This document shows, piece after piece, positions 40,758 to 44,391 of a DNA stretch of 64,000 bases. A model generated the notes under the pieces. That model was not told the origin of the DNA. It worked only from the letters and a program-made list of their open reading frames with translations, and made no database searches. Positions within the stretch are counted from its first letter, which is position 1; each line of letters starts with the position of its first letter. Both the position numbers and the translations under genes were made by a program. The stretch is from Dehalococcoidia bacterium (GTDB taxonomy: Bacteria > Chloroflexota > Dehalococcoidia > Lucifugimonadales > QGNO01): assembly GCA_965248955.1 (NCBI GenBank), contig OZ252212.1, positions 1,536,482-1,600,481 of the forward strand, read 5' to 3'.

Positions 40758-41906
40758 CTATTCACCGGAAGACCAGGTCTCTACTCCGTCCCACTCTTCT
40801 TCTACCTGCTTCAAACTGAGGCCCAGTCTGCGTCGTTCAGGCTCCATCTTGATTATCTTTAGGGTAACCTCGTCACCCTCGTTGATTACCTCCCTTGGGT
40901 GCCTTATCATTCGATCAGATAGCTCTGAAATATGGATCAGGCCCTCTATAGTACCTTCTATTCGAGCAAATGCGCCAAAGTTCGTCAAGCTTGTGACCAC
41001 CCCCTGCACAAGCTGACCAGTCTCATAGTTTTGGGTCACGGTCTGCCAAGGTTCAGGCACCAGCCTACGCAGGCTCAGGGCTATCTTCCTTGTTTCCTGG
41101 TCTACCTTGAGTACGTAGACCTCTATCTGGCTACCTACTGTTACGATGTCTGAAGGCGATTGAACTTGCTCCCAGGACATCTCTGATATATGCACCAAGC
41201 CATCGGCGCCCCCGAGGTCCACAAAAGCTCCGAAATCTGATACCCCGGAGACCACTCCCGTCCTTACCTCACCTTCCTTCAACTCTTGGAGCAGCCGGTC
41301 TTTCTCCTGGTCGCGGTGTTGCTGCAAAGCTTGCTTTTCAGATAGCACAACTCGGTTGCGCCGGCGGTTCAACTCCAATAACTGTAGGGATATTGTCTCA
41401 CCGACACGTTTTGCCAGCGCCTCTTCTTGGTCTACGTCCGTTCCTCTGCCAATCGGGGCAAGCTGAGATAGGGGGACGAAACCCTGCACGCCTTCCACGT
41501 CCACAACAGCGCCCCCCTTGTTGAATCCCCTTATTGTTGCTTTCATAGTGGAGCCGGCGTCCAGATGGTCCTGCAGCACCTTCCATCCCCTCTCGCCCCT
41601 GGCTCTGTCCACGGACAGGATTGCCGGGCCTTCCTCGCTGTCGGGGCGCAGGACGTAGGCATAGACCTCATCGCCAACCTTGAAGCCGTCGGCTTCCTCC
41701 TCCGATAGTGTCTTCATCTCCCGGACAGGGATGAATCCCTCCGACTTATGCCCGATGTTAATCAGGAGGCCTTCCTGGCTAACATGCATCACCTCGCCCG
41801 TGACCACGTCACCGCGGCGCAACTCTTTGAACCAGGAAGATTCTTCTAGTAGTTGCCCCATATCCGGTTGGGTGGGTTGGGAAGCTTGTTCAACAGAGAA
41901 GGACAA
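40758..41906 (-). CDS. rpsA: 30S ribosomal protein S1 (four S1 domains)
   Basis: Repeated FGAFV..G..GL.HISE S1 motifs. Confidence 0.92.
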   Translation of the reverse strand: MSFSVEQASQPTQPDMGQLLEESSWFKELRRGDVVTGEVMHVSQEGLLINIGHKSEGFIPVREMKTLSEEEADGFKVGDEVYAYVLRPDSEEGPAILSVDRARGERGWKVLQDHLDAGSTMKATIRGFNKGGAVVDVEGVQGFVPLSQLAPIGRGTDVDQEEALAKRVGETISLQLLELNRRRNRVVLSEKQALQQHRDQEKDRLLQELKEGEVRTGVVSGVSDFGAFVDLGGADGLVHISEMSWEQVQSPSDIVTVGSQIEVYVLKVDQETRKIALSLRRLVPEPWQTVTQNYETGQLVQGVVTSLTNFGAFARIEGTIEGLIHISELSDRMIRHPREVINEGDEVTLKIIKMEPERRRLGLSLKQVEEEWDGVETWSSGE

Positions 41907-42124
41907 TTTAGATCACACCATTTTCAAGAGGGATGTTCGCCTAGCTATACATTATAGCCAGACGCTTTCCTAGCTGTAAAGGGAATTAGCTTTGTAACTT
42001 TGTATAAGCTATATGTCCCAGCATGGCGCACTAAATGTACCAGGTGTAGGTTCTCCATGAAAGCGGAAGGCGCGTGGAGCCGTTGGCGGAGAGCCCGTCT
42101 AAGATGGAGCGCAAAAAAATAAGC

Positions 42125-42244
42125 CCTCTGGCGATGGCTTATTTTCCCGTGCCCTTGCAAGCAGAGTATCGTCAGCGCTGGGGCGTTTCACTTCCGTGTT
42201 CGGGATGGGAACGGGTGGTTCCACCCCGCTCTAACCACCAGAGA
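42125..42244 (-). rRNA. rrf: 5S rRNA (stand-alone)
   Basis: Minus strand CTCTGGTGGTTAGAGCGGGGTGGAACCACCCGTTCCCATCCCGAACACGGAAGTGAAAC...GCCAGAG with a paired terminal helix and a downstream T-run. Confidence 0.95.
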
Positions 42245-42317
42245 GCAGGGTTATAGGATAGCAACTCTCTCTGCAAGGCGCAATACAAAATCCGTAGAAG
42301 AATGTAGAGACCCCCCC

Positions 42318-42346
42318 TAGACATGGCCAACATCTCACCTTATACT
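42318..42346 (+). promoter_or_regulatory. promoter TAGACA-N17-TATACT
   Basis: Hexamers at 42318-23 and 42341-46. Confidence 0.65.
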
Positions 42347-42393
42347 GGGGTCAGTCTTGGTGGTGTGGTTTGAAACACAAGGAGGTGATGCCG

Positions 42394-42450
42394 ATGAGTA
42401 GTACCTTATGCAACTGTTCATTAACCCGTCTGGAGACCACTCCAGATTGA
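42394..42450 (+). CDS. putative micropeptide MSSTLCNCSLTRLETTPD
   Basis: SD AAGGAGGTGA at 42379-88, with its own promoter and terminator. An in-frame ATG at 42388 is an alternative start. Confidence 0.5.
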   Translation: MSSTLCNCSLTRLETTPD

Positions 42451-42456
42451 GGTAGG

Positions 42457-42490
42457 AGGAGGGCCCGGATTTCCGGGCCCTCCTCTTTTT
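42457..42490 (+). terminator. intrinsic terminator
   Basis: GAGGGCCCGGA...TCCGGGCCCTC stem followed by CTCTTTTT. Confidence 0.85.
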
Positions 42491-42585
42491 CTCCCGTTGC
42501 ACGGTTCTGCCGCCTCCTGCATCTGCCGCCTCTTGCAGGGGAGATATATACTCTACCCAGCAAAAAACTCCTGAGGAGGCCGCAG

Positions 42586-44391
42586 TTGCCCTACGAATTC
42601 GAACGGTTCCTAACCGTACGCAGCGCCTCGGCTCCCGCTTTCTCTCCCAACGGCCGTCGGGTGGTTTTTCTCTGGGATATCACCGGCGTCCCTCAGCTTT
42701 GGGCCGTGGACGTCGATGGAGGCTGGCCGGACCAGCTCACCGTCTACGCGGAGAGGGTGATGACCCTGTTCAACTCCCCGGTCTCAGAGCAGACGGTCTT
42801 TGGCATGGACTCTGGAGGCGACGAACGCCAGCAGCTATACCTGCTCTCCGGCAACGGAGAATCCATCAAACCGCTGACCGCCAATCCCCAAGCGATTCAT
42901 ACACCGGGAGCGTGGACGCCGGACGGTACGTCGTTCGTCTACGTTTCCAACCGCCGCCACCCCGCTTTTTTCGATATCTACGTGAATCGTCTGTCCAGAG
43001 GCGAAGTCCAGATGCTCCTAGAGCACGACGGCACCAATTTGGCGGCTCCCATATCGCCGGACGGTAGTTCGCTGCTCATCAACCGCACCGTGCTCAACCA
43101 CTACAACGAGCTTTACCTCTTGCCCCTGGATATGGCAAGAGGAAGGCCCCGCCTTGTAACCACGGGCAAGGGGCGCAGTACGTATTCCTCGCCGGTGTGG
43201 TCCTCCGATGGCAAAGGGGTCTATCTATTGACGGACCAGGACAGGGAATGGAAGGGTTTAGCCCGGCTTGACTTGGATGCAAGAGAGATTTCCTACCTCC
43301 ATTCTGAAGAATGGGACGTAGAGCTCATGGCCTACGCACCCAAGACGGAGCGCATCGCTTTCTCCATTAATGCGGACGGATATTCGGAAGCCACCGTACT
43401 CTCCTTGGAAGACGGCCGTTCGGAGCAGGTGAGGGGCCTGCCCAAGGGACAGATTCTGGACATGGCGTGGTCGCCCAACGGGGTAGACCTAGCCGTTACG
43501 GCCGGCGGCGCCACCCTCAACTCGGACGTTTGGTTGGTGAACGGGCAGACGGCGCAGGCCCGCCGGCTGACGCACAGTCCCAGGGCAGGCATAGCTCCCG
43601 AAGCGCTCACCGAGCCGGCCCTCGTCCACTATCCAACCTTCGATGGTCGTGACATACCGGCTTTCTTCTACCTGCCGTCCCATGCCGCTAAAGATGGGGA
43701 CCTACCGGTGGTGGTCTACGTGCACGGCGGCCCGGAGAGCCAGTCTAGGCCGGTCTACAATCCCGTATTGCAGTACCTGGCTTACAGAGGATACGGCGTG
43801 CTTGTGCCCAACGTCAGAGGCAGCACGGGCTACGGTAGGGCTTACGAGCATCTGGACGACGTAGAGAAGCGGATGGATGCGGTGAACGACTTGAACCACG
43901 CCGCGAGCTGGCTTGTTGACTCGGGCTACTCCAGGCCTCGGCGCATAGCGGTGATGGGCGGTAGCTACGGCGGCTTCATGACCCTGGCCGCGATCACGGC
44001 CTATCCCGATTCATGGGGAGCCGCCGCCGAGCTGTACGGCATAGCTAATTTCCAGACCTTCCTGGCCAATACGGGCCCCTGGAGGCGCATGCATCGCGCC
44101 GCGGAATACGGCGATCCTGAGAAGGACGGCGAACTGCTCAACCGTATTTCACCTATACACTACGTGGACAGGATCAAAGTGCCGCTGATAGTAGTGCACG
44201 GCGCCAACGACCCGCGCGTCCCCATCAGTGAAACGGAGCAGATGGTGGAGGCTATACAAAAGAGGAACGGCTCCGTGGAGTACCTGCGCTTTGAGGATGA
44301 AGGGCATGGTATCGTCAAGCAGCACAACCGCATAAGAGCCTATACAGCCATAGCTGATTTTCTGGACAGGCACTTGATGAGCGCCGGGTAG
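42586..44391 (+). CDS. S9 family peptidase (acylaminoacyl/prolyl oligopeptidase-like)
   Basis: Beta-propeller repeats, HGGP, RGSTGYG, GGSYGG, DPRVP and DEGH motifs. Confidence 0.93.
   Translation: MPYEFERFLTVRSASAPAFSPNGRRVVFLWDITGVPQLWAVDVDGGWPDQLTVYAERVMTLFNSPVSEQTVFGMDSGGDERQQLYLLSGNGESIKPLTANPQAIHTPGAWTPDGTSFVYVSNRRHPAFFDIYVNRLSRGEVQMLLEHDGTNLAAPISPDGSSLLINRTVLNHYNELYLLPLDMARGRPRLVTTGKGRSTYSSPVWSSDGKGVYLLTDQDREWKGLARLDLDAREISYLHSEEWDVELMAYAPKTERIAFSINADGYSEATVLSLEDGRSEQVRGLPKGQILDMAWSPNGVDLAVTAGGATLNSDVWLVNGQTAQARRLTHSPRAGIAPEALTEPALVHYPTFDGRDIPAFFYLPSHAAKDGDLPVVVYVHGGPESQSRPVYNPVLQYLAYRGYGVLVPNVRGSTGYGRAYEHLDDVEKRMDAVNDLNHAASWLVDSGYSRPRRIAVMGGSYGGFMTLAAITAYPDSWGAAAELYGIANFQTFLANTGPWRRMHRAAEYGDPEKDGELLNRISPIHYVDRIKVPLIVVHGANDPRVPISETEQMVEAIQKRNGSVEYLRFEDEGHGIVKQHNRIRAYTAIADFLDRHLMSAG

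Follow-up and report, generated by a model that had tools for sequence, protein, structure and literature searches.

The closest described systems to the element studied here are rreB and rreR, small mRNAs of Alphaproteobacteria that possess a Shine–Dalgarno sequence (SD) of 16–17 nucleotides (nt), bind the 30S subunit, are weakly translated into clade-specific peptides, and have no known function; in rreB, the SD that mediates 30S binding is 17 nt long (Hahn et al. 2016, RNA Biol; PMC5711450). We analyzed a unit of ∼140 nt at 42318–42490 in a 64,000-nt stretch of a Dehalococcoidia genome (assembly GCA_965248955.1, contig OZ252212.1, positions 1,536,482–1,600,481 of the forward strand; hereafter, the window). 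It consists of an 18-codon open reading frame (ORF) behind an SD that is complementary to the 3′ tail of 16S rRNA. Very probably, it is the 5′ stump of a gene for an Rdx/SelW-like selenoprotein, an origin that escaped the initial annotation of the window, which was made from its letters. Literature searches found no description of the unit or of the wider mini-ORF RNA family described below, and the rre paper was the only relative.

As far as the accessible part of that paper describes them, the rre genes resemble the unit in several respects. Like the unit (∼140 nt), they yield a small transcript (165 nt) that stands alone, with a promoter and a terminator of its own. Both contain an ORF of 14 or 18 codons, the SD of either can pair with practically the entire free 3′ tail of 16S rRNA, and in both the peptide differs between clades. 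However, the complementarity of the rre genes spans 16–17 nt and runs into a GTG start codon, whereas that of the unit spans 11 nt and is followed by a 4-nt spacer and an ATG. Part of the rreB SD is buried in a conserved hairpin, whereas the 5′ untranslated region (UTR) of the unit is predicted to be open. The two share no sequence similarity and belong to different phyla. The unit can be traced to a protein-coding gene, an origin not reported for rre in the accessible part of the paper, and ribosome binding was shown for rreB, whereas the unit is known from its sequence alone. Measured by what characterizes the rre genes, the unit thus has an ORF of 14–18 codons with its own promoter and terminator, as read from the DNA. 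Its perfect 16S complementarity is 11 nt instead of at least 16 nt, and its ATG begins 4 nt past this stretch, whereas the first base of the rre GTG lies inside it. Because of the 11-nt complementarity, the ATG, and the spacer, we class the unit as rre-like in its proposed mode of action and not as a member of the family.

Architecture and origin of the unit

The promoter of the unit, TAGACA-N17-TATACT (42318–42346, plus strand, as are all parts of the unit; −35 at 42318–42323, −10 at 42341–42346), matches the consensus at 10 of 12 positions. It is one of two promoter-like sites that the consensus scan found in 41500–43500, where 0.8 were expected. From a start site placed at ∼42353, the 5′ UTR (42353–42393) is predicted to be unstructured (fold z = +0.4) and contains the SD AAGGAGGTGAT (42379–42389), 4 nt 5′ of the ATG. 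The 16S rRNA of the same genome ends in ...GGATCACCTCCTTTCT, the perfect 11-nt complement of AAGGAGGTGAT, so that base pairing of the SD with the free 16S tail extends over 11 bases without a break. The base following this stretch is mismatched (AAGGAGGTGAT versus ...ATCACCTCCTT). The 11-mer has two copies in the 2,006,147-bp genome, the other one being the antisense of the 16S gene. The ORF MSSTLCNCSLTRLETTPD (42394–42450) extends from the ATG at 42394 to the TGA at 42448–42450 and harbors a 7-bp hairpin, TCTGGAG/CTCCAGA (42429–42446, −11.7 kcal/mol), which ends 1 nt before the stop codon. The intrinsic terminator (42454–42492, −33.2 kcal/mol, z = −5.2) starts 3 nt after the stop codon and comprises a GC-rich 15-bp stem (42454–42487) and a T5 run (42486–42490). 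A terminator pattern scanner found no site at the unit, although the fold shows a clear terminator; the scanner probably missed it because the stem extends into the T-run.

The initial annotation had named the promoter, the match to the complement of the 16S 3′ end, the 18-residue ORF, the internal hairpin, and the strong terminator, and all of them were recovered where it placed them. Its description of a complete transcription unit with a maximal SD, lying back to back with a lone 5S rRNA gene, is equally correct, and by its signals the unit is autonomous.

The origin of the unit becomes apparent from comparison with G010, a genome from another genus (g2) of the same family. Here, the gene order is rpsA (−), 5S (−), Rdx (+), and the N terminus of the S9 peptidase (+), and the Rdx gene is intact; it encodes 96 residues and has a single in-frame TGA, which falls in the motif RYCVS-U-GY. 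This ORF is headed by the same promoter type and by AAGGAGGTGATGCC-N-ATG and diverges from the 5S gene. It matches the Rdx family (PF10262) with E = 5e-15; other intact ORFs reach 3e-15 and 7e-13, corresponding to 49–57 bits. The intact orthologues carry a T(A/G)GACA/TATACT promoter, with both hexamers present in G010, G039, and G029, and an initiation region of the form AAGGAGGTGATGC(C/T)N-ATG. Because an intact Rdx gene with the same 5′ region fills the same slot, we read the 18-codon ORF as the 5′ stump of an Rdx gene. The orthologous position (rpsA, 5S, X, S9 peptidase in both G010 and the window) and the shared promoter and initiation region are established by this comparison, and descent of the unit from a 5S-linked Rdx/SelW-like selenoprotein gene is strongly suggested.

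Selenoproteome surveys reportedly list prokaryotic SelW-like proteins. With its presumed parent, the stump shares locus, promoter, initiation region, and N-terminal codons, but the Rdx domain, with its CxxU or CxxC motif, is gone. The stump ORF ends at the UGA, which is preceded by T/I-T/S-P-D/A, with no Cys three residues upstream. In place of the stem-loop of the selenocysteine insertion sequence (SECIS) type found in the intact orthologues, the stump carries a GC hairpin that is unrelated to it and whose loop varies.

Within the order, an 18-mer from the initiation region occurs in 20 of 301 genomes, once in each (a sample and not a census, as are the 401 Chloroflexota genomes below). All 13 genomes of the window's family have it, at 10 stumps in the window's genus (g1), two stumps in genus g3, and the intact gene in g2. 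Outside the family, it belongs to the Rdx gene in five intact copies and in a stump of genome G126, and one occurrence is a chance match inside a gene. The intact orthologues outside the family come from three other families. Elsewhere in the order, the intact forms of G029 and G117 have selenocysteine (Sec) and those of G050 and G151 have Cys. In G039, the 5S gene lies ∼930 nt upstream of the intact gene, and a convergent F420 ligase gene lies downstream. Intact genes in the same slot in the window's own and three other families, together with stumps of one shared architecture, point to one deletion event that preceded the split of g1 and g3. The G126 stump (L162, ∼1240, minus strand) is a different one, with 21 codons (MHDSL...GGV) ending in TGA and a GGGCCCCG-type terminator ∼60 nt further on; its congeners G050 and G151 keep the intact Cys-form genes.

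The organism of the window decodes Sec, as it possesses tRNA-Sec, SelA, SelB, and an intact Rdx paralogue with an in-frame TGA. The UGA occupies codon 18–20 in the intact genes and codon 19 in the stump. Since the last codons of the stump resemble those around the Sec codon of the intact genes (TGGAGATT ... AGC TGA), we read its TGA, with moderate confidence, as the former Sec codon.

Several features of the intact genes were noted alongside. In the Sec forms (L160:1560-1600, L165, and L179), a small hairpin (in G039, CUGAGG/CCUCAG) contains the UGA in its 5′ arm. Directly after this hairpin comes CUACCUCC, which closely resembles the 16S tail and could base-pair with the SD of the same mRNA, and then the SECIS-like stem-loop, GGCG(G/A)CG-UGGAU-CGCC(G/A)C. 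The second intact Rdx gene of the window's genome (L032, G000:C1:1423138-1423407) has a 9-nt SD, GGAGGTGAT, followed by ..GCC-ATG, and the long SD is also found in its orthologues from congeners. In four other Chloroflexota, by contrast, the SDs of the Rdx genes are ordinary.

Conservation of the unit, its peptide, and its neighborhood

The DNA search covered 41 genomes, namely that of the window (G000) and 40 relatives. Significant matches to the unit were found in 12 of them: G000, all nine other g1 genomes, and both g3 genomes. This conservation in relatives bears out the earlier argument that the signals coincide more than by chance. In the other g1 genomes, the entire 348-nt intergenic region is matched (79–88% identity), and in g3 the match is limited to the segment from the SD through the ORF to the hairpin (73–76%). 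The resulting orthologues (n = 12) come from two related genera and depend on one another. A scan of metagenomes for the genus-type UTR returned one contig, whose unit and flanks match the g3 genome G011, and added no diversity.

All 12 copies keep both promoter hexamers (TAGACA/TGGACA and TATACT), the last 26 nt of the UTR, ATGAGTAGT, the 18-codon frame ending in TGA, the CTGGAG/CTCCAG hairpin, and the stem GAGGGCCCGG/CCGGGCCCTC. The final 26 nt of the UTR are nearly invariant across g1 and g3, and within g1 the UTR block has an identity of 0.94. Over the 174-nt unit, identity amounts to 0.89–0.93 within g1 and to 0.63–0.64 between the genera, with near-invariant blocks. Within g1, the blocks of the unit are 0.89–0.94 identical, compared with 0.69–0.75 for the spacers on either side. 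As a measure of neutral divergence, the four-fold sites of rpsA are 0.73–0.85 identical to G000 within g1 and 0.24–0.30 between g1 and g3, which is saturated (rpsA protein identity, 0.71). The unit has thus outlasted a divergence that saturated neutral sites, indicating that it probably persists under purifying selection. Judging from the pattern of conservation, the targets of this selection are the promoter, the initiation region, the length of the ORF, and the two 3′ hairpins. In g3, the sequence of the terminator stem is conserved, and the T-run is lacking, so that terminator function alone leaves this hairpin unexplained. In G004 (L009), an insertion of ∼1.0 kb separates the 5S promoter from the −35 of the unit (window equivalent, ∼42289–42305); the unit is unchanged despite this loss of its 5S side.

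The peptide behaves differently. Only six of its 18 residues are common to both genera (M1, S2, S3, L13, E14, and P17), and all six fall in the nucleotide-conserved start region or in the hairpin. The nine middle codons are entirely different between the genera, with no indel. Within g1, the variable sites are distributed over codon positions 1/2/3 as 2/5/4, and seven codon differences change the amino acid, compared with two silent ones. In two of the 12 copies, a U-A pair of the ORF hairpin is replaced by C-G, which turns CTG into CCG (Leu to Pro) and CCA silently into CCG. The substitution pattern shows that the peptide sequence is not under selection. The initial annotation had considered a metal-binding CxC peptide or a precursor processed by the S9 peptidase, and it had looked to codon-level conservation as the mark of a peptide and to covariation as that of a noncoding RNA. 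The metal site was rejected, because CxC occurs in four of the 12 orthologues (CNC in two, CSC in two), and neither codon-level conservation nor codon periodicity was found. The precursor idea was rejected as well: the peptidase is a neighbor inherited from the ancestral selenoprotein locus, and synteny with it is seen in g1 but not in g3, where folB lies downstream instead. Of the covariation, a part was found. The exchange in the ORF hairpin and one A-U to G-C exchange in the terminator stem, in which 12 of 12 pairs are kept, are compensatory changes in two pairs; the remaining pairs are invariant. The apical loop of the terminator reads AUUU, AAGU, ACUU, ACU, AACU, or AAUUU across the copies.

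Further candidate features were rejected. A stem over the start codon (42394–42402 with 42413–42421) is 86% paired but not kept in g3. Two minus-strand ORFs of 55 and 70 amino acids are non-coding, with frame shifts between congeners. Read-through of the TGA into the S9 peptidase is not conserved. In G000 and G006, the mini-ORF is in frame with the peptidase TTG start 192 nt downstream and the TGA is the sole stop, whereas in G001 and G002 the frame is blocked. Of the two g3 copies, that at L011 stops two codons past the TGA, and the other one stays open for 24 more codons.

The gene order in the window is rpsA, 5S, the 18-codon ORF, the S9 peptidase gene, and then an F420 ligase gene. The 5S rRNA gene (42126–42242, minus strand; Rfam RF00001, 87.9 bits) is transcribed away from the unit, and no 16S or 23S gene lies inside the window; the 3′ end of the 16S gene is ∼1.16 Mb distant. 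Identity of the 5S gene is 100% in 16 of 17 loci examined in the genus, 99.1% in the remaining locus, and 93–95% in g2 and g3. A putative 5S promoter (42250–42277, minus strand; −10 TATAAC at 42250–42255, −35 TTGCAG/CTTGCA at 42271–42277) was read by eye and is absent from the listing of the promoter scanner. The block containing it (42234–42290) has a mean pairwise identity of 0.87 in the genus and is partly conserved in g3. Downstream of the unit, the S9 prolyl-oligopeptidase-family gene (42586–44391, plus strand; Pfam Peptidase_S9, 4e-47, plus PD40) is preceded by the block AGATATATACTCTACCC (42541–42560), which lies between terminator and gene and is strongly conserved in the genus. This block probably represents the −10 region of a promoter that belongs to the peptidase gene itself, with no good −35 visible. 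Rfam 15 gave no match to a described family, which the initial annotation had kept in mind, over 42318–42490; in gathering and E-value scans, the 5S gene alone reached the threshold, and the unit returned only chance microRNA-type matches with E of at least 0.06.

Proposed function and competing explanations

To account for these observations, we propose that the stump of a selenoprotein gene has been kept as a ribosome-engaging mini-mRNA, a reading that, taken as a whole, we consider evenly poised. The body of the gene would have been deleted in the common ancestor of the two genera, leaving the promoter, the strong initiation region, 18 initial codons that end at the former Sec UGA or beside it, and a GC-rich hairpin at the 3′ end. 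The product that matters would be the ∼140-nt RNA together with its loading and translation, and not the peptide. With its open 11-nt SD, the RNA may bind the whole free 16S 3′ tail and load 30S subunits very efficiently. The ribosome would then run through 18 codons and terminate at the UGA against two hairpins. Both hairpins may protect the 3′ end, and the GC hairpin would in addition terminate transcription in g1. Such ribosome engagement, in the manner proposed for rreB and rreR, is the best available mechanism, although we give it less than even odds; an RNA that captures 30S subunits through a maximal SD had already been suggested in the initial annotation.

The most serious competitor, although an unlikely one, is a functionless relic, i.e. 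a decaying selenoprotein remnant that is conserved through its neighbors, with its divergent promoter aiding the 5S promoter and its terminator shielding the downstream gene. The unit is demonstrably a gene remnant with an unconstrained peptide, the second, different stump in G126 shows that such remnants do arise, and the promoters of unit and 5S gene lie back to back within ∼40–70 bp. However, effects on neighbors would not keep the SD, the spacer, the ATG with the next two codons, the exact length of 18 codons, and the ORF hairpin past saturated divergence. Moreover, the unit of G004 is intact although ∼1 kb of inserted DNA parts it from the 5S promoter, and the g3 hairpin is kept without a T-run, for which a terminator role is insufficient. 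That the 18-residue peptide itself is the functional product of a true micropeptide gene is improbable. The ORF is intact with 18 codons in 12 of 12 orthologues, it follows the strongest SD in the genome, and both genera share the initial M-S-S and L-E-x-x-P near the end. But these residues fall where the nucleotide sequence itself is conserved, in the initiation region and the hairpin, the nine codons between them differ completely, the variable sites (2/5/4) lack a third-position bias, a Leu to Pro exchange is tolerated, and CxC is confined to four of 12 copies.

Two regulatory explanations take the arrangement of stop codon and terminator as their starting point. In leaders of the trpL, hisL, and pyrBI types, a short ORF lies directly before an intrinsic terminator, as it does in the unit, and translation of the mini-ORF could accordingly control read-through into the downstream gene. 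With the stop codon 3 nt before the strong stem, a terminating ribosome would overlap the base of the stem, and the lack of a T-run in g3 points in the same direction. We nevertheless hold attenuation to be quite improbable. The ORF has no run of regulatory codons, the minimum-free-energy and centroid folds contain no alternative antiterminator pairing, and the downstream gene is not conserved, being the S9 peptidase in g1 and folB in g3. In addition, a conserved TATACT block lies between terminator and peptidase gene in g1 and a TATAAT at this position in g3. These −10-like blocks suggest that the downstream gene has a separate promoter. Least probable, and by our estimate highly so, is a selenium- or SelB-sensing element, in which the UGA and the downstream hairpin would act as a degenerate SECIS that binds SelB. 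In a bacterial SECIS, the UGA is followed by a SelB-binding stem-loop. The unit likewise has a UGA, which all 12 orthologues and the G126 stump retain, followed by a stable stem-loop. The apex of this stem-loop is ∼21 nt on, a distance like that in the intact orthologues with their SECIS stem-loop, and the organism has the full Sec machinery. However, the loop varies freely and bears no resemblance to the GUGGAUC loop of the intact genes, the hairpin is followed by a T-run, and neither a frame beyond the UGA nor the products of read-through are conserved.

The reading of the unit as a retained ribosome-engaging mini-mRNA has points against it as well. The SD, at 11 nt, is short of the 16–17 nt of the rre genes, and ∼1 chance occurrence of any 11-mer is expected in a genome of this size. 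The orthologues are just 12, from two genera, and not independent, and the covariation among them is thin. The identification of the TGA as the Sec codon rests on short motif matches (TGGAGATT and AGC-TGA), and an alternative alignment would set the stump hairpin on the UGA-holding hairpin of the intact genes. Alignment of the window with G010 is limited to the 28 nt of the initiation region and to the peptidase gene; it therefore does not mark the end points of the deletion, and the terminator lies outside the aligned parts. Expression data are uninformative either way. Among the RNA runs (13 of 19 listed runs, each holding 0.04–0.08 of the sampled words), four were mapped, and their reads cover the 5S part only (42113–42259), leaving 42260–42595 bare. 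In our reading, the imperfect matches, which make up most of this cover, stem from the 5S of other organisms.

A mini-ORF RNA in Chloroflexota and Cyanobacteria

The initiation region is not confined to the order. A scan with the 21-mer AAGGAGGTGATGCYNATGAGT over one genome per species yielded at least 120 stretches, with an estimated total of ∼240. Among the matches listed, six loci belong to the window's genus, six are unrelated, and the others are ORFs of 13–24 codons in Chloroflexaceae, Roseiflexaceae, Herpetosiphon, Thermomicrobiales, Sphaerobacteraceae, and Anaerolineae, with a longer form in filamentous Cyanobacteria. The 18-mer is present in 65 of the 401 evenly sampled Chloroflexota genomes, nearly always as a single copy, and the reversed pattern in none of the 401. 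Of 50 Chloroflexota 18-mer loci examined, 42 have ORFs of 13–21 codons, and none is an Rdx gene. The Chloroflexota loci are L040–L159 and L182–L230 (e.g. L107:1494-1603, L096:1494-1603, and L049:1494-1603).

These RNAs contain three elements. Element A consists of the 3′ half of the SD and the spacer, element B is a complement of A located within the ORF, and element C is a copy of A located after the stop codon. The stop codon is placed in the apical loop, and a terminator follows. In a set of 80 sequences with a similarity below 85%, pairing in the B:C helix reaches 94.5%, and compensatory changes occur in eight of 10 pairs, with 88 double-change cells compared with 22.9 in shuffles, a number reached by none of 500 shuffles. 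The mutually exclusive A:B helix is 95.0% paired; here, nearly all changes in B are to bases that allow wobble pairing, and where A has changed from C to T, B has changed from G to A. Rfam 15 has no family for this RNA. Downstream genes include Bac_luciferase (nine loci), an Fe-dependent repressor (three), and a GDSL lipase (three). They differ by clade, which fits a free-standing RNA.

The cyanobacterial version (L046, L050, L053, L055, L062, L066, L073, L075, L078, L088, L097, L110, L114, and L119) has an ORF of 23–24 codons (MSDSSK..RLCAGAVL) that contains a CCGGC/GCCGG hairpin. About 100 nt downstream lies GTTCCTCCCGGCAGTC, which is conserved and resembles an anti-SD. At eight of the 14 loci, the downstream gene is Pterin_4a. 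On a Thermomicrobiales contig (L124:294-429), two mini-ORF units face each other and overlap on opposite strands, so that the start region of either transcript would recur, as its reverse complement, at the end of the other.

The unit of the window shares with the A/B/C RNAs the start feature, a single-copy AAGGRGGTGATGCYN-ATG heading an ORF of 13–24 codons. Elements B and C are absent from it; the unit contains no complement of GGTGATGCCG and has the 6–7-bp CTGGAG/CTCCAG hairpin instead. Since the shared 18-mer was itself the search pattern, the homology of the unit to this RNA is a lead and not a result, and we see it as equally balanced between kinship and coincidence. More speculatively, and in our view rather doubtfully, all of these may form one family, in which a maximal-SD short-ORF hairpin RNA would serve as a phylum-wide device for engaging or sensing ribosomes, standing alone in most Chloroflexota and some Cyanobacteria and forming, originally or secondarily, the 5′ end of an Rdx mRNA in this order of Dehalococcoidia. 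The anti-SD mimic B would then pair either with the SD (A) or with its decoy copy (C), and selection would have kept the module when the selenoprotein was lost in the two genera. The free-standing RNAs would be ancient stumps of selenoprotein genes, or the selenoprotein gene would have captured the module.

If the unit is indeed a retained ribosome-engaging mini-mRNA, selection has preserved the ribosome-binding front of a protein-coding gene after the rest of that gene was lost. New small RNA genes or mini-genes could arise in this way and would be invisible to annotation pipelines. It would also add a case from Chloroflexota, with a traceable origin, to the unexplained small mRNAs with near-complete pairing to the 16S tail. 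Beyond this locus, the work led to an undescribed, covariation-supported SD/anti-SD/SD-decoy RNA, which can be tested as a translational switch.

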